A stretch of 64,000 nucleotides of DNA from a virus (lineage: Duplodnaviria > Caudoviricetes). The notes beneath the pieces are model-generated. The model had not been told where the DNA came from. It saw only the letters and a list, made by a program, of their open reading frames with translations, and searched no databases. This document shows, piece by piece, positions 6,029-40,920 of this stretch; within the stretch, counting starts at the first letter, position 1, and each line of letters opens with the position of its first letter. The translations under genes and the position numbers were made by a program. Location: positions 96,001-160,000 of the IMG/VR virus record IMGVR_UViG_3300032053_000004, one strand, 5' to 3'.

Positions 6029-7552
6029 ATGGCCTGGAAAAAGACCGCTAAAGCTATAGTTACTCATAATAATATTCAGTTTGATGAGTGGATGGATGAA
6101 CTCCGTCGTAATAACGAGGGGGCCGTACCTGAATCTCAAATAACTCGAGTAGCTAAAACAGTTTTACGTAAGGCTGACCCGAAGCAGTTTCTTTTAAGTC
6201 ATGCGACTATAGTCGCATCAGTTGATACTTTTACTCCGAAAAATGCTAAGACTGGGCGTCAAATGGCCCAGGGAATCCAAATTGATGTCAGATATCCGAA
6301 TTTCCGGATCAATAAAGAATGTCAAGAATTAATCAATAATAATGGAGATGCCTGGGATCGTTCTTTGCTTCTTTCTACGTATCGAACCTTCATAGGTGCT
6401 CAAAATTATTTAGAGCATATACAAGTTCCAGAGCTCTCAAAGGGATTTATTGTTGACGCTATTGCCCGTGATTTAGGTCATACTTGCTATATAGATATAT
6501 TAGTCGCTACTGATAGGAAACATCAAAAATTAGTTAATGATATTTTATCTGGGGATATTTCTGGTCTTTCAATGGGTTGTGTCTCTCTTTTTACTATTTG
6601 TACGAAATGTGGGAACGTAGCTGCTGACGACACTCAACTTTGTCCGTGTATTCAATATGAAGGAAAAGGAACCATTTTCAAAGATGAAAATGGGATGGAC
6701 AGTAAAATTGCTGAACTTGTCGGACATGTGAGTTCGCCAAATTCTAATCAATTTATTGAAGCTTCTTGGGTTCGTAACCCTGCCTTCCGTGGAGCTGTTC
6801 GTCGAAATATATTAAATCCCAACACGGATCAAATTGCGGCTAAACTTGATGTTGCTTCTCAAGTTTATGAAATACGTTCATCTCAACCATTACCTGACGG
6901 TTTGAAGAAAGCGGCTTCAGTTAGATTTGCAGAAGGGCAAGAAGATGATTCCGCCCAAGATGATTCCGCCCAAGATGATTCGGATTCTCAAGATCAATCT
7001 CAAGATCAGGGTGATGAATCATCAGACTCCGGGGCTGAATCTAAGATTGATGAACTTGTAAACAAAACTCAAGAGCTTTTGCTTGAGGGAATTGTTAAAT
7101 CCTTAACTGATAAACTCGGTCCAAAGCCGGAAGATGTCGGATTTGTACAAGCTCCTATTGATTTAACTAACGAAAACGACAATCTAGTCAGATCTTCAAT
7201 AGATTTTAATCGAAAGCTTCAGAAGGCTTTCCCGAAAAATGTTAAGTTGGTTAAATGGGCGACTCGAGCTTATAAAATTGTACATGAAGGTGGAGTAAAA
7301 TCCATTCGTGCAAACAAAATGAATCCACGTGATTTAGTCGCACTTTCTTGGATTGAAGACCGAATAAACAATAAAGTTTATAGTCCAATTTTATATAAAG
7401 CAGTCATGTCTGCCGGGCCGATCATCAAGTATCCAAGCCCAAAATCTTATTTGGCAGCTTGCAGAGTTAGGATTGGAAGAAACGTCTCTAATAAAGAGTC
7501 TAAGTTTCTTATTTGGAAGGGGAAAATTGCGTCTTTTGCAATTTCCAATTGA
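6029..7552 (+). CDS. Prohead (maturation) protease, HK97/herpes-type fold with Zn-ribbon insertion
   Basis: Motifs NNNGDAW, YLEH, GFIVDA, LSMGC, CTKC..C and EASWVRNPAF, followed by an acidic linker and C-terminal domain. Located just before scaffold and MCP. Confidence 0.75.
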   Translation: MAWKKTAKAIVTHNNIQFDEWMDELRRNNEGAVPESQITRVAKTVLRKADPKQFLLSHATIVASVDTFTPKNAKTGRQMAQGIQIDVRYPNFRINKECQELINNNGDAWDRSLLLSTYRTFIGAQNYLEHIQVPELSKGFIVDAIARDLGHTCYIDILVATDRKHQKLVNDILSGDISGLSMGCVSLFTICTKCGNVAADDTQLCPCIQYEGKGTIFKDENGMDSKIAELVGHVSSPNSNQFIEASWVRNPAFRGAVRRNILNPNTDQIAAKLDVASQVYEIRSSQPLPDGLKKAASVRFAEGQEDDSAQDDSAQDDSDSQDQSQDQGDESSDSGAESKIDELVNKTQELLLEGIVKSLTDKLGPKPEDVGFVQAPIDLTNENDNLVRSSIDFNRKLQKAFPKNVKLVKWATRAYKIVHEGGVKSIRANKMNPRDLVALSWIEDRINNKVYSPILYKAVMSAGPIIKYPSPKSYLAACRVRIGRNVSNKESKFLIWKGKIASFAISN

Positions 7553-25884: not shown

Positions 25885-27153
25885 ATGGCAATTTTTCTTG
25901 TCGGATCAACTTTAACTCGTGGAGATTTACAGATCAAACTCCACAACGATCTTGGTTATCTCCAAGATGGGATAGACGTACGTTGGTCAATAACTACATT
26001 TAATGGAGAACCCGTATCAGGTTCAAAACTTCCCGCCATAAAACAAGATACGGGAACTTATTATGCTCCATGGCAGTCTAACGTTAAAAACGGAAACTAT
26101 ATAATTAAATGGGAATATCAAGAAAATCATTGTGAATCTGTAAAATGTGCAGAGCAAAATTTCTTTATTGTTGATCCTTCAAGCTATAATTGTAATCCTT
26201 GTCGTGTTTGTGATACTGGTTTCCCAGAAAAAGGCGGGTATGCTTTCTTAACCGGTTCTCTTTTAGGAAGGAACGATCTTCCTCTTTATTTGAAAAACAG
26301 TGCCGGTTTACCTGCTGATGCTTTCATGGTTTTTTGGACCATTTTGAATGCAGCAGGTCGTCCTATCAACCCACGAACGATTGCTGATCGTGCGACAATA
26401 GGGGAATATTTTGCAAGTTGGTTTGTTGCTGTTCAAAGTGGGGATTATAGGATAAAGTGGGATTGGCAAGAAACTTCTGATTCTCCTCAAACTTCATCTT
26501 GTATTGATTTTTCTGTCATAAATCCGCCGCTTCCATACGCAGTTATGATTTTAGTACCATGCAATGTTATTACTCCTGATTGCGCTCTTAATCCGATAGT
26601 TGTTCCTGGCGTTCTTGTTGCGTGTTGTGATCAGGTCCGTGTTTGTCCAACACCGATGGCTCCTTGTCCTTGTCCTTCTCCAATTTTTGCAACGATTCCT
26701 ATTCCTATGCCAGGTCCTTCAAATTGTTGTGATTTTGAGATCCCGAGAGTTGTTCATCTCGCTTCTCAAGCTTTACCATCGGGCGGTGGATACACGAATC
26801 AACCATCGTACATAATCCCTTCTGGTGTTAGAAAAATTTGTTTTTATATCAATTATACACGTGGTGTTGTTGGCGGTTTTGCAACTTATAGAATCATGTG
26901 GGGGAATGGAACAGAAGAAACTCAAGAAACTTTGATTGATACCTTCGTAGTTGGAGATGATCAAAATGCTTCTCAAGCCATGTTCTTACAAGATCTAGAA
27001 GGTCCTATACCTCAGTCTAACTCTTCAGTTAATTTTATGATTGAAGTCAGCGTTCCCGGAGGACCTAAGACAGTAAGAGTTTTAGCAGCTGAAAAAGGAA
27101 AACCGGGATCACCGGGAACTACTGCAATAACTTTAACAGCCTCTTCGGATTAA
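25885..27153 (+). CDS. Structural protein with two tandem Ig-like domains and a Cys/Pro linker; possible collar/fibre adaptor
   Basis: Internal duplication GTYYAPW..GNYIIKWEYQE / GEYFASW..GDYRIKWDWQE; directly upstream of the collagen gene. Confidence 0.55.
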   Translation: MAIFLVGSTLTRGDLQIKLHNDLGYLQDGIDVRWSITTFNGEPVSGSKLPAIKQDTGTYYAPWQSNVKNGNYIIKWEYQENHCESVKCAEQNFFIVDPSSYNCNPCRVCDTGFPEKGGYAFLTGSLLGRNDLPLYLKNSAGLPADAFMVFWTILNAAGRPINPRTIADRATIGEYFASWFVAVQSGDYRIKWDWQETSDSPQTSSCIDFSVINPPLPYAVMILVPCNVITPDCALNPIVVPGVLVACCDQVRVCPTPMAPCPCPSPIFATIPIPMPGPSNCCDFEIPRVVHLASQALPSGGGYTNQPSYIIPSGVRKICFYINYTRGVVGGFATYRIMWGNGTEETQETLIDTFVVGDDQNASQAMFLQDLEGPIPQSNSSVNFMIEVSVPGGPKTVRVLAAEKGKPGSPGTTAITLTASSD

Positions 27154-27156
27154 TTT

Positions 27157-30100
27157 TTGTCAGTAGACAACCCAAGAGGTGCAAGAGGCTTTATCGGACC
27201 GACAGGCCCGGCTGGATCGACAGGTCCAACGGGCGCTATTGGGCCTGTCGGTACTCAAGGCTCTCCGGGTGCTCCTGGTCCAACTGGTCCAACTGGTGCT
27301 ATTGGTCCTATTGGTACTCAAGGTGTTACTGGGCCTCAAGGATCTCCAGGCCCCACAGGCCCGATAGGTCCGACAGGTCCGACAGGTCCGCAGGGTTCAC
27401 CTGGTTCACCTGGTTCCACTGGATTGATTGGACCTCAGGGGTCTCCTGGTTCACCTGGTCCCACAGGGCCTCAAGGTTCTCCCGGTGTAACCGGTTTAAC
27501 CGGAGCAACGGGTCCTCAAGGTTCCCCTGGTTCCCCTGGTTCCCCTGGCCCCACAGGACCTCAGGGATCACCTGGATCACCTGGCCCCACTGGACCTCGA
27601 GGAACTCAAGGGTCACCTGGTCCAACAGGACCACAGGGGTCTCCTGGTTCCCCCGGCCCCACTGGTGTAACAGGGCCTCAGGGCTCTCCTGGTTCCCCCG
27701 GCCCCACTGGACCCCAGGGTTCTCCTGGCCCCACTGGACCTCAAGGATCGCCGGGTAGTCCTGGTCCAACTGGACCACAAGGTTCACCTGGTTCACCTGG
27801 TTCACCTGGATCACCTGGCCCAACTGGCCCACGTGGTTCTCCCGGTTCACCTGGTTCTCCCGGTTCACCTGGTTCTCCCGGCCCCACTGGACCCCAGGGT
27901 TCTCCTGGCCCCACAGGGCTTCAAGGAACCCAGGGTTCACCTGGTTCTCCTGGACCAACTGGACCAACTGGACCCCAGGGTTCTCCTGGCCCTACAGGCC
28001 CTCAGGGTTCTCCAGGTTCTCCTGGCCCAACTGGTCCTACTGGACCCCAGGGATCACCTGGCCCCACTGGACCCCAGGGTTCTCCTGGCCTGCGTGGGGT
28101 TACTGGAGCTACCGGTCCAACCGGAGCGCGTGGCCCCACTGGACCAACGGGGCCAGTTGGACCAACGGGGCCTCAGGGTTCTCCTGGTAGTCCCGGTCCT
28201 ACTGGTCTGCAAGGCCCGATAGGATCCCCTGGTCCAACCGGTCCTCAAGGTTCTCTTGGATCCCCAGGTCCCGCCGGTCTACAAGGGCCGGTTGGTTCAC
28301 CTGGATTAACTGGACCTCAAGGCCCTCAGGGTTCTCCTGGCCCAACAGGACCAACAGGACCAATTGGTCCTGTACCTTCTTTTTATCCTGCTCCTGTTAG
28401 TACAGCTGTCTTTTCTGGTTTTCAGGCTACACATTCAATATTCACTTCAATTCCTAGCTCTTATATATCTTTAAATTTAAATTCTGAAGCTGATATTATT
28501 TCTTTCTTAAATGTTGCTATTGATTCTTCTGGTGGATCGGTAAACAACACTCCAATAATAAGAATTGTTATCGATAACATACCTGGACCCGAATTTCAAT
28601 TATTCAACGCAAACGCTCAACCTGAAAATTCTTCGGCGGCTTATGTTCTTCGTCGTCCTGCTGGCGTTCACACTTTATGGGGAGAGTGGCGTCGCTCGGC
28701 TGGTAATCGAGTTATGGTTTTGGAGAATGGCTCTCTCGTAGCTTTCTCCAATCAAGGGGTTCAAGGAGCGACTGGCCCACAAGGGCCAACCGGTCCCGCA
28801 GGTGCAACCGGTTCCCAAGGATTAATAGGTTCTCAAGGATTCCAAGGTTCTCCTGGTCCTATTGGACCTCAAGGTGCAACAGGACTGGTCGGACCGACAG
28901 GACCGATTGGTTCTCCAGGCCCGACAGGTCCTCAAGGTGCAACTGGTTTAGCAGGTGAAACTGGTCCTATCGGTCCTCAAGGAACTCAAGGAACAACAGG
29001 AACTCAAGGAGCAACAGGTGTCCAAGGCGTAACTGGATCGACAGGTCCTCAAGGCTCGATTGGTTCCCAAGGATCACCCGGGCCACCTGGTCCAACTGGT
29101 GCCCAGGGTGCAACTGGTGCCCAGGGTGCAACTGGTGTCCAGGGTGCAACTGGATCGACAGGTCCTATCGGTCCACAAGGAACTCAGGGTTCTCCAGGGC
29201 CAACCGGTCCGCAAGGTTCTCCAGGATCAACTGGTGCTGCAGGGTCTACGGGTGTTACAGGACCGCAGGGAAACCCTGGCTCACCGGGTCCTACTGGTCC
29301 AACCGGTCCTCAGGGTTCTCCCGGTCCGACTGGACCTCAAGGATCACCAGGTTCAACCGGACCACAAGGTTCCCCTGGTTCTCCAGGATCGACTGGCGCA
29401 GCAGGTTCCACAGGTCCTCAGGGTTCCCCTGGCTCACCTGGCCCCACTGGACCTCAGGGTTCCCCTGGGTCTCCAGGTCCGACTGGTCCTGCTGGGTCCA
29501 CTGGTGTTACTGGGCCCCAAGGCTCACCGGGGTCTCCAGGACCAACAGGTCCTCAGGGTTCCCCTGGGTCTCCAGGTCCGACTGGTCCTGCTGGAGCCAC
29601 TGGAGCCACGGGTCCTCAGGGCTCTCCAGGTCCTACAGGCCCAGTGGGTCCGACTGGAGTAACTGGGGCCACAGGGCCACAGGGTTCACCTGGTTCTCCA
29701 GGGCCAACTGGCGCACCGGGTCAGACCGGGGTTACTGGACCTCAAGGTTCACCCGGTCCGACTGGTCCTCAGGGTTCACCCGGTAGTACAGGACCAACAG
29801 GTCCTCAGGGTTCCCCTGGCTCACCTGGCCCCACTGGACCTCAGGGTTCCCCTGGGTCTCCAGGTCCGATTGGTCCTCAAGGTTTCCCAGGCTCACCAGG
29901 TCCAACTGGCGCCGCTGGCCCCCAAGGAAGTCCAGGTTCTCCAGGGCCAACTGGCGCAGCTGGGCCTACCGGTGTTACAGGTGCGACTGGGCCTCAAGGT
30001 TCACCTGGGTCTCCTGGCCCCACAGGCCCTCAAGGCTCACCTGGCCCCACAGGCCAAGCTGGTGCTACTGGCGCTCAAGGAAGCTCCGGATCCCCAGGGC

Positions 30101-33100
30101 CTACAGGAGCAGCAGGTCCAACAGGTCCAACAGGTTCCATCGGTCCTCAAGGAACTCAAGGAACTCAAGGTTCACTTGGCTCCCCAGGCCCAACGGGACC
30201 TCAAGGCTCCCCTGGACCGACAGGTCCCCAAGGTCTCACGGGTGTAACTGGTCCACAAGGCTCACCAGGTCCAACTGGTGCAGCAGGTTTTACTGGGGTT
30301 ACTGGACCTCAGGGTTCACCTGGTCCCACCGGTCCGGCAGGGCCTACTGGCGTTACGGGGCCTCAAGGTTCTCCTGGTCCGACTGGCCCACAGGGTTCTC
30401 CAGGAAGTCCTGGACCCACGGGAGCAGCAGGTCCAACCGGAGTTATTGGAGCCACTGGGCCTCAAGGTAGTCCTGGACTTACGGGACCGCAGGGCTCACC
30501 CGGTCTTACAGGTCCTCAAGGAAGTCCAGGCTCCCCAGGTCCAACGGGTCCTGCTGGATCTACTGGAGTAACGGGAGCAGCTGGCCCCGCAGGTGTCACT
30601 GGTGCAACTGGTCCTCAGGGTAGTCCAGGAAGTCCTGGGGCTACTGGACCTCAAGGATCACCTGGATCGCCAGGACCTACTGGACCTCAAGGCTCCCCAG
30701 GCTTGCCTGGCCCGACTGGACCTCAAGGCTCACCAGGCAGTCCGGGATCGCCTGGCCCTACGGGGCCACAAGGTAGTCCTGGTCCAACAGGACCACAAGG
30801 CTCACTTGGTTCTCCGGGCCCAACAGGTCCCCAGGGATCTCCTGGTAGTCCAGGTGTAACTGGAGTGGCCGGGCCTATTGGTGCAACTGGAGCTACTGGT
30901 CCTCAAGGCTCCCCCGGTCCTACTGGTCCTCTTGGATCTCCAGGTCCCATTGGACCTCAAGGGTCTCCTGGATCACCTGGCCCCACTGGTGCTGCGGGTC
31001 CACAAGGGTCTCCTGGAAGTCCAGGCCCCACTGGAGCAGCTGGCCCCACAGGTGTCACTGGTGCGACTGGGCCTCAAGGCTCACCTGGGCCACAAGGACC
31101 TCAGGGAACTCAAGGTAGCCCTGGTCCCACTGGGCCTCAGGGCTCACCAGGCTCGCCTGGTCCCACTGGAGCTATTGGAGCTATTGGAGCCACTGGTCCT
31201 CAAGGCTCCCCCGGTCCTACTGGTCCTCAGGGATCACCTGGCCCCACAGGCCCCTTAGGTAGCCCAGGAACACAGGGATCCCCAGGCTCGCCTGGTCCTA
31301 CTGGTCCACAGGGCTCTCCAGGACCTACTGGTCCACAGGGAAGTCCAGGTAGCCCTGGACCAACGGGTGCTGCTGGACTTACTGGTGTTACAGGCGCTAC
31401 TGGTCCACAGGGCTCTCCAGGACCTACTGGTCCACAAGGTTCACTAGGTAGTCCTGGTCCAACCGGTCCTCAGGGTAGTCCGGGATCAGCGGGGCCTCAG
31501 GGTTCGCCAGGACCAACCGGACCTCAAGGAGCAACTGGACCGCAAGGTTCAACAGGGCCACAAGGATCTCTTGGATCCCCAGGACCAACTGGGCCTCAGG
31601 GATCACCAGGACCAACTGGTATAGCTGGCCCCACTGGTGTCACAGGAGCAACTGGACCTCAAGGGTCACCTGGGTCCCCAGGTCCGACTGGTCCTCAGGG
31701 ATCACCTGGTAGCCCTGGACCAACCGGTCCGCAAGGTTCCCTTGGATCCCCTGGACCAACGGGAGCTGCTGGAGCCACAGGTGTCACTGGAGCCACTGGA
31801 CCTCAGGGTTCTCCGGGTCCAACCGGACCTCAAGGTTCTCCAGGTTCACTTGGCCCCACTGGGCCTCAGGGTAGCCTGGGTCCCACAGGGCCACAAGGTA
31901 GCCCTGGTTCTCCAGGTCCAACTGGCCCTCAAGGATCACCAGGAAGTCCTGGTCCTACAGGAGCAGCTGGCCCTACTGGTGTTACCGGTGCCACAGGCCC
32001 TCAAGGTAGTCCAGGATCTCCCGGCCCAACCGGAGCAGCAGGACCAACGGGGGTAACTGGAGCCACTGGACCTCAAGGTAGTCCAGGACCTACAGGTCCT
32101 CAGGGATCGCCGGGAGGACCAGGACCAACCGGACCTCAGGGTAGTCCGGGCAGTCCGGGTCCAACCGGTGCAGCAGGGCCCACAGGCGTTACAGGGGCTA
32201 CGGGCCCTCAGGGAAGTCCCGGTCCAGTTGGATCTCCTGGTTCACCTGGTTCACCTGGTCCAACTGGTCCTCAGGGTTCTCCTGGTAGTCCAGGTCCTAC
32301 CGGACCTCAGGGTTTACCTGGATCTCCTGGTCCAACTGGCCCCCAGGGATCTCCTGGTTCTCCTGGCCCAACTGGCCCCCAGGGTTCTCAGGGTTCACCT
32401 GGTCCTACCGGACCACAAGGATCACCTGGTCCAACTGGTCCAACTGGTCCACAAGGTTCTCCTGGATCCCCCGGCCCCACTGGACCTCAAGGATCTCCTG
32501 GATCCCCCGGCCCCACTGGAATCGATGGTCCTACTGGCCCTCAAGGTTCTCCAGGTCCAACTGGACCACAAGGGTCCCCAGGGTCCCCAGGTAGTCCTGG
32601 ATCGCCCGGTCCTACTGGACCTCTAGGTTTTCCTGGGAGTCCTGGGAGTCCTGGGAGTCCTGGTCCTACTGGACCGTTGGGGTCTCCAGGATCACCTGGC
32701 CCCACTGGACCTTTAGGACCTTTAGGAACACAAGGTTCACCAGGTAGTCCAGGCCCTACCGGTCCTGAAGCAACTCCATCGTCTCAGATCATTGAGGCCA
32801 CTGGAACTATCACAACCACATCGACTACTGACACGCTTGCTACGTCAATGACTGTAACACCAACCTCTGGTACATATCTCGTATGGTTTACAGGATCAGT
32901 TGATAATAGTACTACTAACAGCTCGATTTTTACATCAATTTATTCGAATGGCGCACAGGTAGCTTCTTCCGAAAGAAACTTTCGACGTGGTGGTTCTCAA
33001 GGAAACGTAGCTTCTGCATTTGATTGTGCAGCAAGAGTCACAGTTAATGGTTCTCAAGCAATTGAAGGTCGTTGGAGAGTTGATGCTGGAACCGGTAGCA

Positions 33101-33138
33101 TGTATCAACGAAGTCTTATGATTCTCAAGGTAGCCTAA
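27157..33138 (+). CDS. Giant collagen-like fibre protein
   Basis: Gly-X-Y tracts at 27178-28374 (133 triplets) and 28756-32769 (446 triplets), each followed by a ~120-aa beta-rich globular domain. Dominant triplets GPT, GPQ and GSP. Confidence 0.9.
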
Positions 33139-33139
33139 T

Positions 33140-33976
33140 ATGCCTCTTAGTCAATATACATACACGATCGCGACTGATTTTCCAAACAATTTAGTCAACT
33201 CGGATCGACTCACTCTTGAAATTATAGCCACTGCGATAGTACCTGTCCTTGATCATATTGATACTGAGAATGGGTTTTGCGATATATTCTTCCAATCAGC
33301 TCTTTCTGTTGGAGAGCAAACTACGCTTGATGGTGTTGTCGCAGTACATTCTGGCGCTCAGTTTTCTGGTCAGGTTCTCTATGGACACACTGGTGCACCA
33401 ACATTTGCTGATGATTTCTCAGAAGAAAACACCACAGGGCAAATATGGGTTGATCAACCAGGCGGCAGAGCATTTGTTAATATTTCGCCAACGCCAATCG
33501 GATCAGCTATATGGTTGTCCATGGGGGGTGGTTCACCAGGCCCTACTGGTCCCATCGGTCCCCCCGGACCAACTGGACCTCAGGGACCAACAGGTACAAA
33601 TGGGCCTCAGGGCTCACCCGGGCCAACTGGACCTCAGGGACCAACTGGACCTCAGGGACCAACTGGACTAAATACGAGTGCTCATGAACAATTAAGACAA
33701 CTGATTCATTTTATTGATGATGGTCCCGGTTTTGGTTTTGCTTCCGGAGCTTATAGAGAAGTTTCTGGTGTTCCATTCCCAACAGCCATAACCTGGTATG
33801 AAAGTTCAAATAAGACTGCTAAAATAGTTGAAAAGTTAATTTCTCTTCCATTAATAGCCCCCACAGGCATAACATGGAATATGTATGGAGTTGGGGGAAC
33901 ACCGATAGTTCAAACAATTGGTGACAGAATTGTTTATACAGGGATTTTCGAAATTTCAAGGATTAGATCAATATGA
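33140..33976 (+). CDS. Short collagen-repeat structural protein
   Basis: Central GPT/GPQ tract of ~15 triplets flanked by globular domains. Confidence 0.75.
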
Positions 33977-33988
33977 CTTTATTAAACT

Positions 33989-35803
33989 TTGGTGATTACA
34001 ATGAGTGATACACCCGCTGTAATCATTTATAATTCAACTGGTACAGACGCGGCTGCGGTGAAGGCAGCGAGCACGGCGGCTGTTGCTGCCGATACAGCTC
34101 TGGTCGTTGCTATTAGTCCAAACTCCAACGATGTTGCTGTAGCCTATTACGATAATGGTCAAGGAGAGTCTGCAACTTGGGATAATACTACGAACCTCAG
34201 TGTTGATGTTGAGGCTATTCCACCCACTGTTGCTGGTAATGCCTGCACTGTCAGTATCTCACTGACACGTACCGGGACAATTACAGCAGGCGAGATTTCG
34301 TTTCAGGGTTCGGACGCAACTGGTGGTGTTTGGTTCCCGGTAAAAGCAACTCGTACCGAATCATTCACGACCGAGAACTCCATTCTGCTATCTGGCGTAG
34401 CAGACATTATGTGGAAGGTGAGTTGTGCCGGGTTCTTTGGCCTCCGGGCACAACTCACCACACAGATAACGGGTGCGGGCAGTGTGTTTATTACGACCCT
34501 ATGGGATACCTCCCCTGTAGGTGACACAAGATCCACTGTTGGTCAGAGTGATGAGACTAAGCTGAACGCCACGACCACTCTGAGGAGCGGACTCAAGGGC
34601 TCATCAGCAGCAGCTCTGGTGACTAGCTCTGCATCTGGGGCGAATCACCAGCCCCTCGATGTTGCGATCTACGACGCCACAGGCAATCAGATCACGAGCT
34701 TTGGCGGTGGAACCCAGTACACGGAGGATGTTGCTGCTCCAGCCGATCCTACTGGAACTTCCAAGGTACTGGTTCGTGCTGATACACCGGCAACGATCAC
34801 GGGAACTGATGGTGACTGGGTTTCTCAGAGAGGAACCAACTACGGTGCTGGGTATGTCCAGGTCGTTAACTCAACTGGGTCATTCGTAGACACGTTCGGT
34901 GGTGGTACGCAGTACGCGGACGGTGCTGCTCGTGGGACTGCTACCGGCACCTTGATGATGGTGGATGACGGCACGCTGGTTCAGTCGGCAAGTGGAGACT
35001 CTACAGGCAAGCTCAACGTCAATGCGATTCAGAGCACGGCTGCTGGTGCGGCGGCACCGTGGGCGACACGACTCAGTGATGGTGCCGCGTTCTACGATGC
35101 AGCCAAGACCGGGCAGCTCCCCGCTGCACTCGTAGGCGGTCGCCTAGACGAGAATGTCGGGGCCTGGCTCGGTTCTACGGCTCCCACGGTGGGGTCCAAG
35201 ACTTCAGCGAATTCTCTCCCGGTAGTTATCGCTTCTGATCAAGGTGCGGTTCCGGTCTCTGGAACTGTCACTGCCGGTCAGGGCACGGCTGCGGCTCTGG
35301 CAGGATACTGGCCGGTTCGTGTGACCGATGGCACCAACACGATGCCCACCCTGGACACGGTGGGTCGTCGTGGGTTCGTCACAATCACGGACGGCACGAA
35401 TTCGATGCCGACCGGTGATGCAATCGCCAGGGCGCTCTTCGTTCGTCAGACCGATGGGACGAACAACGCCACGATCAAGGCGGCTAGCGTCACAGCAGTA
35501 GCGGCAGACACCGGGATCGTAGTTGCACCCCGTGCGTCAGCAACCGGTACGCAGACAAGCGTTGCATCAAGCGCAACAAGCGCGCAGCTACTTGCGGCGA
35601 ATACAGCTCGCATGGGTGCGATCATCTTCAACGATTCGACGCAAGTATGCTTCGTGAAGTTCGGCACGACCGCATCAAGTACGAGCTTTGCTTATCGCCT
35701 CACGTCGAACTCGACGCTGGAGGTGCCCTATGGGTACACGGGTCGTATCGACGCGATCTGGGCATCTGCGAATGGTAACGCTCGAATCACCGAGATGACG
35801 TGA
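33989..35803 (+). CDS. Putative fibre/receptor-binding protein
   Basis: T/A/G-rich, with repeated GGGTQY and V.xTDGTN motifs; GC rises after ~34300. Confidence 0.6.
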   Translation: MVITMSDTPAVIIYNSTGTDAAAVKAASTAAVAADTALVVAISPNSNDVAVAYYDNGQGESATWDNTTNLSVDVEAIPPTVAGNACTVSISLTRTGTITAGEISFQGSDATGGVWFPVKATRTESFTTENSILLSGVADIMWKVSCAGFFGLRAQLTTQITGAGSVFITTLWDTSPVGDTRSTVGQSDETKLNATTTLRSGLKGSSAAALVTSSASGANHQPLDVAIYDATGNQITSFGGGTQYTEDVAAPADPTGTSKVLVRADTPATITGTDGDWVSQRGTNYGAGYVQVVNSTGSFVDTFGGGTQYADGAARGTATGTLMMVDDGTLVQSASGDSTGKLNVNAIQSTAAGAAAPWATRLSDGAAFYDAAKTGQLPAALVGGRLDENVGAWLGSTAPTVGSKTSANSLPVVIASDQGAVPVSGTVTAGQGTAAALAGYWPVRVTDGTNTMPTLDTVGRRGFVTITDGTNSMPTGDAIARALFVRQTDGTNNATIKAASVTAVAADTGIVVAPRASATGTQTSVASSATSAQLLAANTARMGAIIFNDSTQVCFVKFGTTASSTSFAYRLTSNSTLEVPYGYTGRIDAIWASANGNARITEMT

Positions 35804-36483
35804 TGCCCGTCTCAACTCCATCTCAGGCTATCATCAGCGAGACGTTCCTGGTCTCAGGCACGACCTTCACGACAGGTCCGACCACAACCCGAATCAAGGT
35901 CGAACAGGTCGGCGGTGGCGGTGGAGGTGGAGGTGGTGTCACTGGTGTGACGGCAACATCGGCGGCTCCCGGTGGTGGCGCTGGTGGCTACGCCATCAAG
36001 ATCTTCGATGTAACCCCCAACACGAACTACACCTACGCGATCGGTGCTGCCGGAACAGCGGCGACCGCCGGGAACAACGCTGGCGGAAATGGTGGCAACA
36101 CTACGTTTGCAGTGGGAGCCGTGACCGTTACTGCCAACGGTGGGACCGGCGGTGCTGGCGGCGGCGTCGCTGCCACAACTGTCCTGATCTTGGCCGGTGG
36201 TGCTGGTGCTACCGTTGGAACCAACGGTGACGTCAACGCTCCTGGTCAGGGCGGTGGGGCCTCGACTCGACTCTCGGCAACGATTGCAGCCAGCGGTAAC
36301 GGAGGAAGCGGACGGTTTGGGGCCGGGGCTCTAGGAACTGTTGCTCAGGGCGCAGGCACGGCCGGAACCGGTAACGGCTCGGGAGGCTCGGGTGGCCTTT
36401 CACTCAACGGCGGTGCCTCGGTTGCAGGTGGTGCCGGAACGGTGGGGGCGATCCTCGTGACCGAATACGAGGCCACGGCATGA
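35800..36483 (+). CDS. Glycine-rich fibre-associated protein
   Basis: VGGGGGGGGG...GGGAGGY polyglycine motifs; TGATG coupling. Confidence 0.7.
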   Translation: MMPVSTPSQAIISETFLVSGTTFTTGPTTTRIKVEQVGGGGGGGGGVTGVTATSAAPGGGAGGYAIKIFDVTPNTNYTYAIGAAGTAATAGNNAGGNGGNTTFAVGAVTVTANGGTGGAGGGVAATTVLILAGGAGATVGTNGDVNAPGQGGGASTRLSATIAASGNGGSGRFGAGALGTVAQGAGTAGTGNGSGGSGGLSLNGGASVAGGAGTVGAILVTEYEATA

Positions 36484-37160
36484 TCCAGCAGGCCAAGCTC
36501 GTTCTACTCAGCGAGACCTACCTGACGACGGGCACGACCCACACGGTCAGCAGCAATACGCACAGGATCTTCATCGAGCTGGTCGGCGGCGGTGGTGGTG
36601 GCGGTGGTGCCTCTGGAACTGGCTCTCAAGCCGGGGCGGGAGCCGGTGGTGGAGCCGGTGGATACGGCTGCAAGGTCTTCGACGTGGTGCCCAGCACCGG
36701 CTACACCTACGCGATTGGAGCGGCTGGAACGGCTGGAGCGGCAGCGGCCGGTACTGGAGGCAACGGAGGCGACACGACCTTCGCGGTGGGGGCCACGACC
36801 GTCACGGCCAAGGGAGGCACCGGAGGTGTCGGTATGGCGAACGGCACGACCTCGTTGATCACCAAGGGCGGGGCCGGGGGTGTCGTCGGCTCCAACGGTG
36901 ACGTGAACGCTTCAGGGGACAACGGCGGTGATGGGGTTCGGTTGTCTGGCTCGATTCGTCGGGCCGGTGAAGGTGGCAGCGGTCCTTTTGGTGCCGGGGG
37001 GCAGAACACGAACGTCAGTGGAAACGGTGGCGCAGGTTCGGCCGGAACTGGCAACGGCTCAGGCGGTTCCGGTGGCAGCAGCGGCAACGTCACGAATCGA
37101 GCCGGTGGTGTCGGCACGGTCGGCGCCATCCTTGTGCAAGAATACGGTTACGTCACGTAG
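36480..37160 (+). CDS. Glycine-rich fibre-associated protein, paralogue of 35800
   Basis: Colinear with the upstream gene (SETxL.xGTT...YTYAIGAAGTA...GAILVxEY). Confidence 0.7.
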   Translation: MIQQAKLVLLSETYLTTGTTHTVSSNTHRIFIELVGGGGGGGGASGTGSQAGAGAGGGAGGYGCKVFDVVPSTGYTYAIGAAGTAGAAAAGTGGNGGDTTFAVGATTVTAKGGTGGVGMANGTTSLITKGGAGGVVGSNGDVNASGDNGGDGVRLSGSIRRAGEGGSGPFGAGGQNTNVSGNGGAGSAGTGNGSGGSGGSSGNVTNRAGGVGTVGAILVQEYGYVT

Positions 37161-37168
37161 GAGAAGTC

Positions 37169-37546
37169 ATGCCTTTCATCATCACAGCCCCAGAGACCAA
37201 GACGATCACACAGAAGTACGTGATCACGAACCCAACCAACGACGACGTTGTAGAGGTGAGTGCCGTCCGGACCATCGACCGCGTGAACATCGAGCACATC
37301 ATCACCAGTATGCCGATCAACAACCCGACCGGCGTCTCCATGACAGTCAAGTGGAGTATCGGCTACATGGACGGAGTCGTATTCTTCCCGACCGAGCGGG
37401 GCAGTGCCGAGCTGGCCGGTGAAGCGTTGCTGACCAAGATGGTCGAGCCGGTGATTCCAGGGGCCACCCACTATGGTGATCACAAGGCTGCGCTATACGA
37501 GCTTCTCGTTGCATTGGGCCACATCCCGGCTGGATCAATCGTATGA
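37169..37546 (+). CDS. Hypothetical protein of the fibre module
   Basis: SD AGGAG; ATGA overlap with the patatin gene. Confidence 0.6.
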   Translation: MPFIITAPETKTITQKYVITNPTNDDVVEVSAVRTIDRVNIEHIITSMPINNPTGVSMTVKWSIGYMDGVVFFPTERGSAELAGEALLTKMVEPVIPGATHYGDHKAALYELLVALGHIPAGSIV

Positions 37547-38400
37547 GAGCGTTGGTTCTCAGCGGGGGCGGGAGCAAGGGCGCGTATCAGGTCGGCGCGC
37601 TGAAGCGGTGGGTGTTTGAGGAAGGAGCAGACTACGAGATTCTGACGGGTATTTCGGTAGGAGCCATCAACACCACCTACCTCAGCCAGTATCCTGTAGG
37701 ACAGGGCAAGCAAGGCTACCAAGCCCTCAAGGATCTGTGGGACACTGTGACTCCTCGCAAGGTTAAGAAGAACTGGTTCCCCTTCTGCCAACTCGAAGCT
37801 CTCTGGAAGCCCTCTGTGTACAACTCGGAGCCTCTCCAGAAGTGGGTTCGGGGTGGTCTTGACACCGAGAAGGTCTTGGCTTCCGGGAAACTCCTTCGGA
37901 TCGTAACGGTCTCGTGGGACACCGGGGAGGCCAGAGTTATCTCTCAGGATGACTCTCAGCTTGCCGATTGGGTCATCGCAAGTTCAGCTTTTCCTGTCAT
38001 GTTGAGCCCCATCCGTATAGACGGTCAGCTCTGGACGGACGGCGGCCTAAGAAGCGTCACTCCACTCGGGGAGGCCATCCGTGCTGGAGCAACCGAGATT
38101 GACGTGATCATGTGCTCGGACCCTTATGCCAAGAGTCCGTTTGCATCGAAAGGCAAGGGAGCTTTCCCCAGCCTCACCATGCGAGCCATCGACATAATGT
38201 CTGACGAGATCATGAGGGCGGACTTGAAAATCTGTGGTCTCAAGAACGACCTGGCCGAACTAGATTCCAAATACCGGAAAGTCCATATTCGTCGTCTTCT
38301 AAAACCCTCTGTTGATTTAGGGGACTCTTTGGATTTCGAACAAAAGAATATCATTAGAATGGAAAAAATCGGGTATGATGATGCATGTAATTTAATTTAA
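37543..38400 (+). CDS. Patatin-like phospholipase
   Basis: GGGSKG oxyanion loop, GISVG nucleophile elbow and DGG catalytic motif. Confidence 0.9.
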   Translation: MRALVLSGGGSKGAYQVGALKRWVFEEGADYEILTGISVGAINTTYLSQYPVGQGKQGYQALKDLWDTVTPRKVKKNWFPFCQLEALWKPSVYNSEPLQKWVRGGLDTEKVLASGKLLRIVTVSWDTGEARVISQDDSQLADWVIASSAFPVMLSPIRIDGQLWTDGGLRSVTPLGEAIRAGATEIDVIMCSDPYAKSPFASKGKGAFPSLTMRAIDIMSDEIMRADLKICGLKNDLAELDSKYRKVHIRRLLKPSVDLGDSLDFEQKNIIRMEKIGYDDACNLI

Positions 38401-38424: not shown

Positions 38425-40920
38425 GTGAAAGCCCCCATATCGGCCTGTCTTATAGTTAAAAATGAAATTGGACAAATCGAAAATTGTCTTAAGTCTATAC
38501 GTCCATATGTAGAAGAAATAGTAGTAGTAGATACTGGTTCCACTGATGGAACTCCGGAAATAGTTAAAAAATATGCTGATATATTTGAAGTTTTTACAGG
38601 ATGCAATGACTCAGAAGGACGGATTGAATCTTTTTCTTTAGCAAGACAAAGAAGTTTTGATTTAGCTACTAAACCTTGGCTTTTTTGGATAGATGGTGAT
38701 GATGAGGTTCAAGGGGCCGAATATTTACTTGAATTAACTACAAAATATGATAAACTGAGAAATGGATCACCTGTAATGGTGATCATACCATATGATTATT
38801 CATTTGATGAAAAAGGAAATGTCACATGTCTTCATTATAGAGAAAGATTAATCACTCCAAAAACTGCATGCCATTGGGTTAGTCCTATACATGAAATTTG
38901 TACACCAAATGGTCCTGGGACCGTCATGGTCCAGGATGAAAAAGTTCGCGTTGTACATAAACGACATCTTGTAAATAAACCATTTGAGCAAAATCGGAAT
39001 CTTCGTATCCTAAAATCTCATTATGAAAAGCATGGCGAATCTGATATTCGTCATCTATACTACCTTGGTCTCGAGTATGGAAACGTTGGTGATCTAGGAA
39101 ATGCTATAAAATTTCATAAACGGTATGTTGAACTTTCAGGCTGGGATGATGAGAGGTTCCTCGCTTGTTTGAAGGTATCTGAACATTATCAATCAATGGG
39201 TGATTATGATAGTTCTGTTGATTGGGCTTCAAAAGCTCTCATAGTTAGAGAGGGTTGGTGTGAAGCTTATTTCTCTTTAGGGAGAAGTTTTTATTTCATG
39301 GCCCAAAAGGGCGGAAAAGATTCATATAGAAATTGGGAAAGAAGTGTTCATTTCTTTTCATTAGGGCTTTCTTTACCACCGACCAAAACTATTCTTTTTG
39401 TTAATCCGACAGAAAGAAATTATGATGTTCATAGATATTATAATTTAGCTTTACATAATGTAGGTCAAACTGAAAAAGCTTTGGAAAGTGTAAATCAAGC
39501 ACTTCAAATGAGACCTGATGATGATGGTCTTATTGGAAATAAAAAAATTTATGAAAATGATTTAGCTCGCAAGACGATAGATAAAAATTTATCTATTCTT
39601 CATAATATGGGAGTATTGTCTACCGACCAAAATCAATTGATCATAGATGTTCTTTCAGGAAAATTAACTAAATTAACTAAATCGAATGTTGAAAATAAAC
39701 AAGAAATTAAATCGGAAATCACCTTAGAAATTAAAAAAGAGTCCACACTTGGAACCGAAGAAGTTATACGACCTCTTAATGACCTTAAATCAGTAATAAA
39801 TACGAAATACGAAATCGTGTTTTATGTCGGTCCAGGTCCCGAATCTTGGACCCCAAATACTGCTAATAAGATTGGGATTGGTGGGTCTGAAACTGCTGTA
39901 ATAGAAATGGGTCGAAGATTAGCTAAACTTGGTCATACTATTCGAGTTTATGGAGATTGTCCGAATTCTGAAGGTGTATATGATGGTGTTTCATATTTTG
40001 ATCACACAAAATATCAAAATCAATCATGTGATATACTAATAACATCAAGAAGGCCAAACGCTGTAGACGATACTAATAATGTTAAATCTAGAGTTACGTT
40101 TTGTTGGGTCCATGATGTTAGTTGTGGTGGGGCTCTTACTCATGCAAGGACTATTCGAACAGATAAGTTTTTGACTTTGAGTCAGTGGCATAAAAACAAC
40201 TTTTTAAGTTCTCATGTTTCTGTTCATCCCGACCAAGTTATTGTTACTAGAAATGGTATTGATTTGAATAAATTCAAAAAATCTGTTCAAAGAAATCCTC
40301 ATAAAGCTGTTTATAGCTCAAGTCCAGATCGTGGGATGGAAGTTGCGGTTCGTATTTGGCCGCGAGTACGGGAAAAAATACCTGACGCGGAACTTCATGT
40401 GTTTTATGGTTTTCAAACTTGGGAAGTCTCAGCTGTCAATGACCCGGGTCAAACTAATTTAATTAAACATTTGAAAAATGTTCTTAAGGAACATGAGGAA
40501 CACGGGGTTATTTTTCATGGGAGAGTTAACCAAGAGGAACTTGCGAATCACTTTTTATCGAGTGGTGTTTGGCCATATAGTACTTGGTTTACCGAGACAA
40601 GTTGTATAACCGCTATGGAAGCCCAAGCCGCTGGCCTTAGAATTGTCACTTCTCCTATTGCTGCTCTAAATGAAACCGTCGGGCCTCGAGGAGTCATGAT
40701 CCCTGGTGATTGGCTATCTCCTGATTATCAAAATAAATTTGTTGATGCTGTTGTAGAAGCGATGAATAAAACTGACGATTCTGATCGTGAAATTTTAAAG
40801 AAATATGCAGAAGAAAATTTTGGTTGGGACTCGTTAGCAAACGACTGGGAAAAGATGTTTGAATCAGTCATTGAAGAAGTCTCAACAAATATGATTCCTC
40901 CTTATAAGGGGTACTTGTGA
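38425..40920 (+). CDS. GT2-TPR-GT4 multidomain glycosyltransferase
   Basis: ISACLIVKNE..VVVDTGSTDGT..FWIDGDD (GT2), TPR-like helices (YYLGLEYGN, AYFSLG), then GGSE...SSPDRG...FTETSCITAMEAQAAG (GT-B). Confidence 0.85.
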   Translation: MKAPISACLIVKNEIGQIENCLKSIRPYVEEIVVVDTGSTDGTPEIVKKYADIFEVFTGCNDSEGRIESFSLARQRSFDLATKPWLFWIDGDDEVQGAEYLLELTTKYDKLRNGSPVMVIIPYDYSFDEKGNVTCLHYRERLITPKTACHWVSPIHEICTPNGPGTVMVQDEKVRVVHKRHLVNKPFEQNRNLRILKSHYEKHGESDIRHLYYLGLEYGNVGDLGNAIKFHKRYVELSGWDDERFLACLKVSEHYQSMGDYDSSVDWASKALIVREGWCEAYFSLGRSFYFMAQKGGKDSYRNWERSVHFFSLGLSLPPTKTILFVNPTERNYDVHRYYNLALHNVGQTEKALESVNQALQMRPDDDGLIGNKKIYENDLARKTIDKNLSILHNMGVLSTDQNQLIIDVLSGKLTKLTKSNVENKQEIKSEITLEIKKESTLGTEEVIRPLNDLKSVINTKYEIVFYVGPGPESWTPNTANKIGIGGSETAVIEMGRRLAKLGHTIRVYGDCPNSEGVYDGVSYFDHTKYQNQSCDILITSRRPNAVDDTNNVKSRVTFCWVHDVSCGGALTHARTIRTDKFLTLSQWHKNNFLSSHVSVHPDQVIVTRNGIDLNKFKKSVQRNPHKAVYSSSPDRGMEVAVRIWPRVREKIPDAELHVFYGFQTWEVSAVNDPGQTNLIKHLKNVLKEHEEHGVIFHGRVNQEELANHFLSSGVWPYSTWFTETSCITAMEAQAAGLRIVTSPIAALNETVGPRGVMIPGDWLSPDYQNKFVDAVVEAMNKTDDSDREILKKYAEENFGWDSLANDWEKMFESVIEEVSTNMIPPYKGYL

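Follow-up and report, generated by a model that had tools for sequence, protein, structure and literature searches.

We found that a single gene in a 64,000-nucleotide stretch of phage DNA (hereafter the window; positions 96,001 to 160,000 of IMG/VR virus record IMGVR_UViG_3300032053_000004, Duplodnaviria; Caudoviricetes) encodes a chain in which two uninterrupted collagen-like tracts, of 133 and 446 Gly-X-Y triplets, are each followed by a domain with the predicted jelly-roll fold of tumor necrosis factor (TNF) and complement C1q. The window is a portion of a 202-kb contig from sediment, estimated to represent ~47% of a huge-phage genome. The gene probably specifies one chain of a homotrimeric, O-glycosylated, jointed collagen-like virion fibre with lectin-like tips, carried by a huge (about 400 kb) sediment phage. 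Its parts are as follows.

27157-33138, + strand: collagen fibre gene; open reading frame (ORF) of 5,982 nt, 1,993 codons
27157..27177, + strand: TTG start and N-terminal peptide M-S-V-D-N-P-R, with the first collagen Gly directly next
27178..28374 (aa 8-406), + strand: collagen tract CL1, 133 Gly-X-Y triplets (register script)
28375..28755 (aa 407-533), + strand: M domain, in-chain TNF/C1q-like jelly roll, predicted trimer (AlphaFold2 model)
28756..32769 (aa 534-1871), + strand: collagen tract CL2, 446 Gly-X-Y triplets (register script, sample tiles)
32770..33138 (aa 1872-1993), + strand: C domain and stop codon, terminal TNF/C1q-like knob, candidate receptor-binding tip (AlphaFold2 model)

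The collagen tracts and their authenticity

The initial annotation, made by a model from the letters of the window, had placed an unbroken 446-triplet tract at 28756-32769 and a second tract of 133 triplets in the same gene. A scripted register check of the ORF returned exactly these two maximal Gly-X-Y runs, both uninterrupted. The sole irregularity is GGP, with Gly also in the X position, at triplet 374 of CL2. In the whole 202-kb contig, the only other run of at least eight Gly-X-Y triplets in any frame is a 16-triplet tract in the next gene. The triplet makeup described initially (GSP, GPT/GAT/GVT) agrees with the counts for CL2: GSP 125, GPT 87, GPQ 83, GAT 28 and GVT 19. This tract also has GAA blocks, and its four-triplet periodicity is weak.

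The composition of the tracts is unusual in its near-absence of charge. CL2 contains three charged residues (one Asp, two Glu, no Lys or Arg), and CL1 has five Arg and no acidic residue. There are no KGE or KGD triplets in either tract; as CL2 is devoid of Lys and Arg, none is possible there. The Y position of CL2 is mostly occupied by Thr (153), Pro (133) and Gln (102), and 73% of its triplets have one Pro. The Pro content of the tracts, 24-27%, is that of animal fibrillar collagens. Their G+C content is 63%, whereas G+C at third codon positions (GC3) is 0.26-0.28, against 0.22-0.32 in neighbouring genes. Because GC3 matches the neighbours, the high G+C stems from the Gly and Pro codons, and the fibre gene appears to be native to its AT-rich genome. 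Genes for a prolyl hydroxylase (PF13640), an FKBP or a cyclophilin were not found in the 202-kb fragment, which covers about 47% of the genome and so leaves room for them elsewhere.

The collagen helix rises 0.286 nm per residue; provided that they are helical, CL1 and CL2 would form rods of about 114 nm and about 383 nm. Formation of a triple helix is what we infer from the register together with the predicted trimerising caps. The earlier observation that the long tract surpasses the type I collagen helix holds as arithmetic, but the length is not exceptional: prokaryotic collagen-like chains with as many as about 2,000 triplets have been reported (PMC11923368), and one relative described below has 754. 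Fibre length alone is no record.

An assembly-inflated repeat was the refuting outcome named at the outset, and as far as short reads allow it is not borne out. The longest exact DNA repeat in the fibre gene is 73 nt. Identical 12-residue peptides within it are encoded by DNA that is 76.0% identical, against 75.2% expected for random synonymous codons at the gene’s own usage. The synonymous scrambling of codons noted initially is therefore real, and it is as complete as chance permits. With scrambling nearly complete and no exact repeat above 73 nt, nothing is left for an assembler to inflate. It is plausible that the scrambling serves to prevent recombinational collapse, a purpose that is indistinguishable here from the mere age of the repeats. 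The two copies of the 73-nt repeat, the gene’s only long exact one, lie in frame at 29410-29482 and 29797-29869; recombination between them, at a spacing of 387 nt, would remove 43 triplets and leave the register intact.

The gene was also tiled with Logan contigs from four sediment samples, the likely source sample being excluded. In all four independent samples the tiles are collinear with the gene, with 0-5 mismatches per tile and no insertions or deletions, and within each sample their depth equals that of the flanks (in X3, 72.7-80.2 versus 75.7 for the upstream flank). There were no length variants of the fibre gene among proteins of 1,096-3,488 aa. The samples differ at 17 sites; all four variants in Gly codons and all three in the M domain are synonymous, and six amino-acid replacements fall at X or Y positions. 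Such a pattern is as expected if the triple-helix register is under selection. At least 24 sediment metagenome runs, from 24 studies, contain it among the matches listed. No RNA dataset was among those listed.

The two knobs and a probable joint

Both caps are beta-rich domains of about 125 aa, each C-terminal to one tract. The AlphaFold2 model of the C domain (pLDDT 95), whose family aligns well, is a TNF/C1q-like jelly roll. Its best structural match is the lectin PLTL (Z 15.6), followed by ExsFA (Z 13.4), F-BclA (Z 12.6) and the BclA C-domain (1wck; Z 11.9, rmsd 2.5 Å, 112 residues aligned), and Foldseek relates it to the N-terminal domain of BC2L-C (BC2L-C-Nt) at E 3e-6. The M domain (pLDDT 88) has the same fold, with Z 14.5 to PLTL, a Foldseek E of 5e-8 to BC2L-C-Nt, and Z 10.7 (rmsd 2.6 Å, 110 residues aligned) to 1wck. 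The initial description of both caps as BclA-C-like was thus right about the fold. It needs some qualification: TNF-like lectins fit better, neither domain belongs to Pfam BclA_C, and the first “cap” is a node within the chain. In particular, neither C nor M matches BclA_C (PF18573) at E <= 0.01, and that profile has no match in the C domain of 41 C-domain relatives at E <= 0.1; those in P0033 and P0037 lie outside the C domain and below the cut-off. Bc2l-C_N (PF21592) likewise gave no Pfam match for either knob, and the fold alone is common to them.

The M and C domains share their fold only, as BLASTP and hhalign found nothing significant between their sequences. A recent tandem duplication, considered as the origin of the pair, is ruled out by this lack of detectable sequence relation.

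The C domain occurs in 128 database proteins, most of them without collagen. It ends 0-13 residues from the C-terminus in all of these, and within five residues in all but two. Some of these proteins bear an Mtd_N adaptor, a depolymerase sandwich, DUF2793 fibre repeats or beta-helices. The strictly C-terminal placement and the varied, mostly non-collagen partner modules suggest that the domain is a portable fibre tip, widespread on phage receptor-binding-type proteins. In a 209-kb contig of NCBI assembly GCA_012974985.1 (L004:10001-10972), for example, the same knob tops a 323-aa protein whose stalk consists of ~40-residue repeats in place of collagen. A patatin-like gene lies two genes after it, as in the window.

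The M domain is more closely bound to collagen. Its family comprises 26 representative clusters, in which the domain adjoins collagen tracts and mostly stands between two of them, with up to three copies per protein. P0125 (629 aa, L009) and P0126 (1,476 aa, L008) have three M knobs strung on collagen links of 5-22 triplets, and a further collagen gene is present in L008. One protein with three M domains ends in a tail of the short-fibre type, 50% identical to the C-terminal domain of the product of 33140..33976 in the window, and modules have apparently been shuffled between the two fibre genes. We found no description in the literature of a TNF-like trimer inside a collagen chain.

A trimer is predicted for three copies of M, with an ipSAE of 0.94 against 0.00 for the best of three controls, contact agreement of at least 78%, and partner pLDDT of at least 88. 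When the method was calibrated, 20 of 30 proteins solved as pairs reached the mark, as did 1 of 23 solved as single chains; these counts are only rough for M because a custom alignment and three copies were used. Further, the result may mirror the likeness of M to solved TNF-like trimers. In the predicted trimer, residue 48 of one copy contacts residues 14, 128 and 130 of its neighbour, residue 78 contacts 18 and 126, and the three C-terminal exits (131-136) touch one another. These contacts would make the first and last strands antiparallel neighbours, so that chain entry and exit would share one face, which is the canonical geometry of C1q/TNF domains. Because two coaxial rods cannot both occupy that face, the geometry implies an elbow or hairpin at M rather than a straight 500-nm rod. 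The fibre is thus probably jointed at M, with arms of 114 and 383 nm.

The fibre’s relatives and genomic neighbours

The genes around the fibre that bear on its function are these.

25885..27153, + strand: upstream partner, 422 aa; two repeated beta domains followed by a linker rich in Cys and Pro and, at the C-terminus, a beta-sandwich
33140..33976, + strand: second, short collagen-like fibre, 278 aa, 16 triplets; syntenic with a relative’s 781-aa second fibre
35800..37160, + strand: two paralogous Gly-rich-domain proteins, tail-fibre tip/assembly-like (Pfam Gly_rich_2; PHROG 863 “tail fiber assembly”, E 1e-28 to 1e-29; GC3 0.59-0.70)
38425..40920, + strand: GT2-TPR-GT4 glycosyltransferase (Pfam), candidate O-glycosylating enzyme

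The upstream partner is syntenic in three other huge-phage contigs, at 46-51% identity over its full length, and a collagen gene comes directly after it each time. Profile searches of Pfam, PHROG and the PDB returned nothing for the partner; an Atlas model of its C-terminal part resembles carbohydrate-binding-module (CBM)-type sandwiches (TM 0.55-0.67), which we regard as weak leads. On this gene arrangement the partner is a candidate anchor or adaptor of the fibre. Its linker (aa 215-285; 26530-26740) has an invariant CC pair and several further Cys conserved in all four homologues, and may be a disulfide or metal knot of the putative anchor.

The fibres of the relatives open with (V/I)-x-N-P-R-G and proceed straight into Gly-X-Y, and they start 0-4 nt past the upstream stop. 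Given this conserved motif and spacing, the start codon is the TTG at 27157, and translational coupling of the two genes is indicated. A readthrough fusion with the upstream gene was considered, as the two genes of the window share a frame across a TAA and one codon; it was rejected, as in three relatives the frames differ and the start is the same.

One relative is the 427-kb contig IMGVR_UViG_3300028920_000001, which has direct terminal repeats; its syntenic fibre gene (L002:11242-18459) encodes 2,405 aa with 754 triplets, in tracts of 361, 115 and 278 separated by interruptions of one and three residues. This fibre is longer overall than that of the window. It has many GDQ triplets (Asp in X) and almost no Lys or Arg, and its C-terminal domain aligns into the C-domain family. 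The fibre of another relative has 848 aa and a different middle domain; the middle domain in L003 matches neither the M nor the C family. Throughout the relatives’ rods, the Y position is rich in Thr and Gln, and Lys and Arg are nearly absent. Between these fibres, rod length and the internal knobs vary, but the N-terminal peptide is kept in all three relatives. The fibre in L003 (13600-14100) ends 16 residues past its last collagen tract and lacks a knob at that end; immediately beyond the stop, and in frame with the fibre, comes a beta-rich ORF of about 110 aa. In this relative the tip may be the product of a separate ORF; the alternative is a broken gene.

Downstream of the fibre in the window, the gene order is the short collagen fibre, a 604-aa Ala/Thr-rich protein, the two Gly-rich genes, a patatin-like lipase, and the GT2-TPR-GT4 enzyme with further sugar genes. 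The glycosyltransferase is 5.3 kb from the fibre. Orthologues with about 45-62% identity also follow the fibre in three other loci: within a few kb in G002 and G003, and ~0.4 kb 3′ of P0126 in L008. The linkage thus holds in all four loci that have downstream sequence, the window included, and by analogy it strengthens the initially proposed likeness to the glycosylated Thr of BclA. The TPR part of the enzyme (aa 327-380) has a sub-threshold match (E 0.0019) to the peptide-substrate-binding TPR domain of prolyl 4-hydroxylase, and may hold a Pro-rich collagen chain.

Within this cluster, four consecutive genes at 33989-38400 (the 604-aa protein, the two Gly_rich_2 paralogues and the patatin-like lipase) have a GC3 of 0.54-0.70, against 0.22-0.32 in all neighbouring genes, the fibre gene among them, and look like a recently imported block. 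The wider neighbourhood also has a peptidoglycan polymerase.

No cultured relative of the phage was found. Megablast of the upstream 10 kb against 50,697 phage records gave no match, and tblastn of the C and M domains found nothing among cultured-phage records; that of the upstream partner gave one weak partial match, to an unannotated uncultured phage. Marker scans of the contig had no match to the capsid families of nucleocytoplasmic large DNA viruses (NCLDV) or to phage sheath families in Pfam.

Proposed working, alternatives and known systems

We propose the following working for the fibre. Each TNF-like domain would trimerise first and set the register of the three chains; the collagen tract N-terminal to each knob would then zip from C to N, as in BclA, C1q and collagens VIII/X. 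The protein would thus consist of two stacked units in series, each a rod with a trimeric cap. C-to-N zipper folding is established for collagens (PMC11923368), as are the domain logic and glycosylation of BclA (PMC10470788). The short N-terminal NPRG peptide would dock the fibre onto the upstream gene product on the virion, and the C-terminal knob, possibly with the M knob, would bind a host-surface glycan in the manner of TNF-like lectins. Given that no prolyl hydroxylase was found in the half of the genome covered and that salt bridges are impossible, stability would have to come from Pro, one in about three-quarters of the triplets, and from O-glycosylated Thr (Y) and Ser (X). The neighbouring GT2-TPR-GT4 enzyme and its sugar-supply genes could carry out this O-glycosylation. 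The role of such a fibre might be the long-range, low-affinity capture of host cells, their sheaths or their capsules.

We offer a broader proposition tentatively, and consider it somewhat unlikely as a whole: that this is a glyco-collagen longer than type I, stable without hydroxyproline or Lys-Glu/Asp clamps, which relies on phage-encoded O-glycosylation of Thr and Ser and on one Pro per triplet, which uses in-chain TNF-like trimers as registration nodes or elbows, and which represents a class of jointed fibres made of swappable units of rod and knob.

Several points weigh against these proposals. The virion fibre is putative and predicted from genes, and the C and M domains have no match by sequence in Pfam, PHROG or the PDB. 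The geometry of the joint derives from predicted contacts of an M domain excised from its collagen flanks. Baseplate_J is about 70 kb downstream, a poor fit to a classical baseplate tail fibre. A (Gly-Pro-Thr)10 peptide folds only if glycosylated and is a random coil otherwise (PMC11923368), and a collagen helix that lacks both hydroxyproline and salt bridges lies close to the limit of what is known from model peptides. Finally, none of the listed Logan contigs spans the whole gene, so that the order of the tiles depends on the original assembly.

The last of these points speaks for an assembly artefact, in which a repeat was inflated or several collagen genes were fused at common k-mers. The gene contains 84 repeated 31-mers, which fragment the Logan assemblies; tiles end, and uncovered stretches fall, where 31-mers repeat, and those assemblies have many low-support “joints” to other collagen sequences. 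Still, the tiles are unique, overlap collinearly in four independent samples without insertions or deletions, and follow the depth of the flanks. The limit on exact repeats, a frame open for 5,982 nt, and a still longer syntenic gene in the relative with direct terminal repeats also argue against an artefact, which we judge to be extremely improbable. A genuine gene could nonetheless encode tracts that do not form a triple helix, but instead serve as extended, heavily glycosylated spacers of mucin-like or polyproline-II type, joined only at the two trimeric knobs. The missing hydroxylase in the 202-kb contig, the lack of KGE/KGD triplets and the behaviour of unglycosylated (Gly-Pro-Thr)10 would be in accord with this. 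We think it unlikely, since Gly recurs at every third residue over 579 triplets with zero slips, and since Gly-codon variants are all synonymous while X and Y take replacements; only triple-helix packing demands such a register. Moreover, a presumed trimerising domain stands at the end of each tract, and the Pro content equals that of animal fibrillar collagens.

As for its position on the virion, the fibre could be a head or neck fibre of the whisker type, anchored on the capsid or collar through the upstream immunoglobulin (Ig)-like protein, and serving long-range host capture or particle spacing rather than triggering infection. The gene for the head maturation protease (6029-7552) ends about 19.6 kb upstream of the fibre gene, much nearer than Baseplate_J, and the repeated beta domains and C-terminal sandwich of the partner recall the layout of Hoc. 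These features make a head or neck location quite possible, if short of an even chance. Opposed to it are the matches of neighbouring genes to tail-fibre tip/assembly PHROGs and the finding that some C-domain proteins also have the tail-fibre adaptor Mtd_N or a depolymerase module; besides, virion position can be read only loosely from gene order in huge phages. The product might alternatively not be part of the virion at all, but be set free when the cell lyses, or be exposed on the surface of the infected cell, so as to coat or bridge hosts like an exosporium nap or a matrix. Its likeness to the spore-surface proteins BclA and ExsFA, and the nearby patatin-like lipase and peptidoglycan polymerase, could be read in this way. 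No signal peptide is visible at the 8-residue N-terminus, however, and there is no membrane anchor; the gene is tightly coupled to a conserved, structural-looking gene within a morphogenesis region, and the C domain is common to phage proteins of the receptor-binding type. We therefore hold a role outside the virion to be very unlikely.

The proposed virion fibre has clear precedents. BclA of the exosporium nap of Bacillus anthracis/cereus, and the tip fibrils of F-BclA and L-BclA (PMC10470788; 1wck, 9h38), also begin with a short anchoring peptide, continue as a Thr-rich Gly-X-Y rod and end in a trimer of the TNF/C1q-like type that promotes trimerisation. In that system the number of triplets sets the length of the fibre, the rod is glycosylated, and the fold matches the C domain at Z 11.9-12.6. 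The present protein differs in being phage-encoded, in having 579 triplets rather than tens, in its extra, predicted in-chain TNF-like trimer, in falling outside Pfam BclA_C, and in an N-terminal peptide unrelated to the BclA N-terminal domain (NTD). Complement C1q and the NC1 domains of collagens VIII/X likewise join a collagen rod to a C-terminal trimer of C1q-type jelly rolls, by which the chains are registered (fold Z 10-11). These animal proteins contain hydroxyproline and charged triplets and have the jelly roll at the end of the chain only, whereas the phage fibre also has one within it. For both knobs, the best structural matches are the TNF-like lectins PLTL of Photorhabdus laumondii (9ib6) and the N-terminal domain of BC2L-C from Burkholderia cenocepacia (2wq4), both of them jelly-roll trimers whose sugar-binding sites lie between subunits. 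The lectins show no sequence relation to the knobs and have no collagen stalk; the likeness is one of fold.

Among phages, prophage tail fibres such as EPclA of Escherichia coli O157:H7 (PMC3368898), and those of the PHROG “collagen like minor tail” families, have trimeric collagen-like segments as well. EPclA-type rods are short and about 22% charged, a figure quoted in PMC11923368, whereas CL2 has 446 triplets and three charged residues. The pairing of a Thr-rich collagen-like protein with an adjacent gene for its O-glycosylating enzyme is known from BclA3 and SgtA of Clostridioides difficile (PMC7157674). That is a spore system, and the phage cassette adds sugar-nucleotide and methyltransferase genes; the GT2-TPR-GT4 enzyme is likened to SgtA by gene position, not by orthology. 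Since collagen fibres with C1q/TNF-like caps are on record from spores, animals and prophages, the novelty does not lie in the kind of fibre. It lies in four features that occur together: a rod of perfect regularity, almost no charge, a TNF-like node within the chain, and a candidate glycosylation cassette linked to the gene.

This combination has implications beyond the phage. A fibre of half-micrometre reach suggests hosts with thick sheaths or capsules, or hosts at low density in sediment. An in-chain TNF-like trimer would account for the registration of very long rods segment by segment, and could be a design element for recombinant collagens. The candidate cassette makes it possible to ask, with two or three genes, whether glycosylation of Thr replaces hydroxyproline. 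It was recently proposed that interchain salt bridges are a general folding code of long collagens, viral ones included (PMC11923368). The collagen of the M family, with 1.9% charged residues and one KGE/KGD in 1,186 triplets, is a direct counter-example with which that code can be tested.

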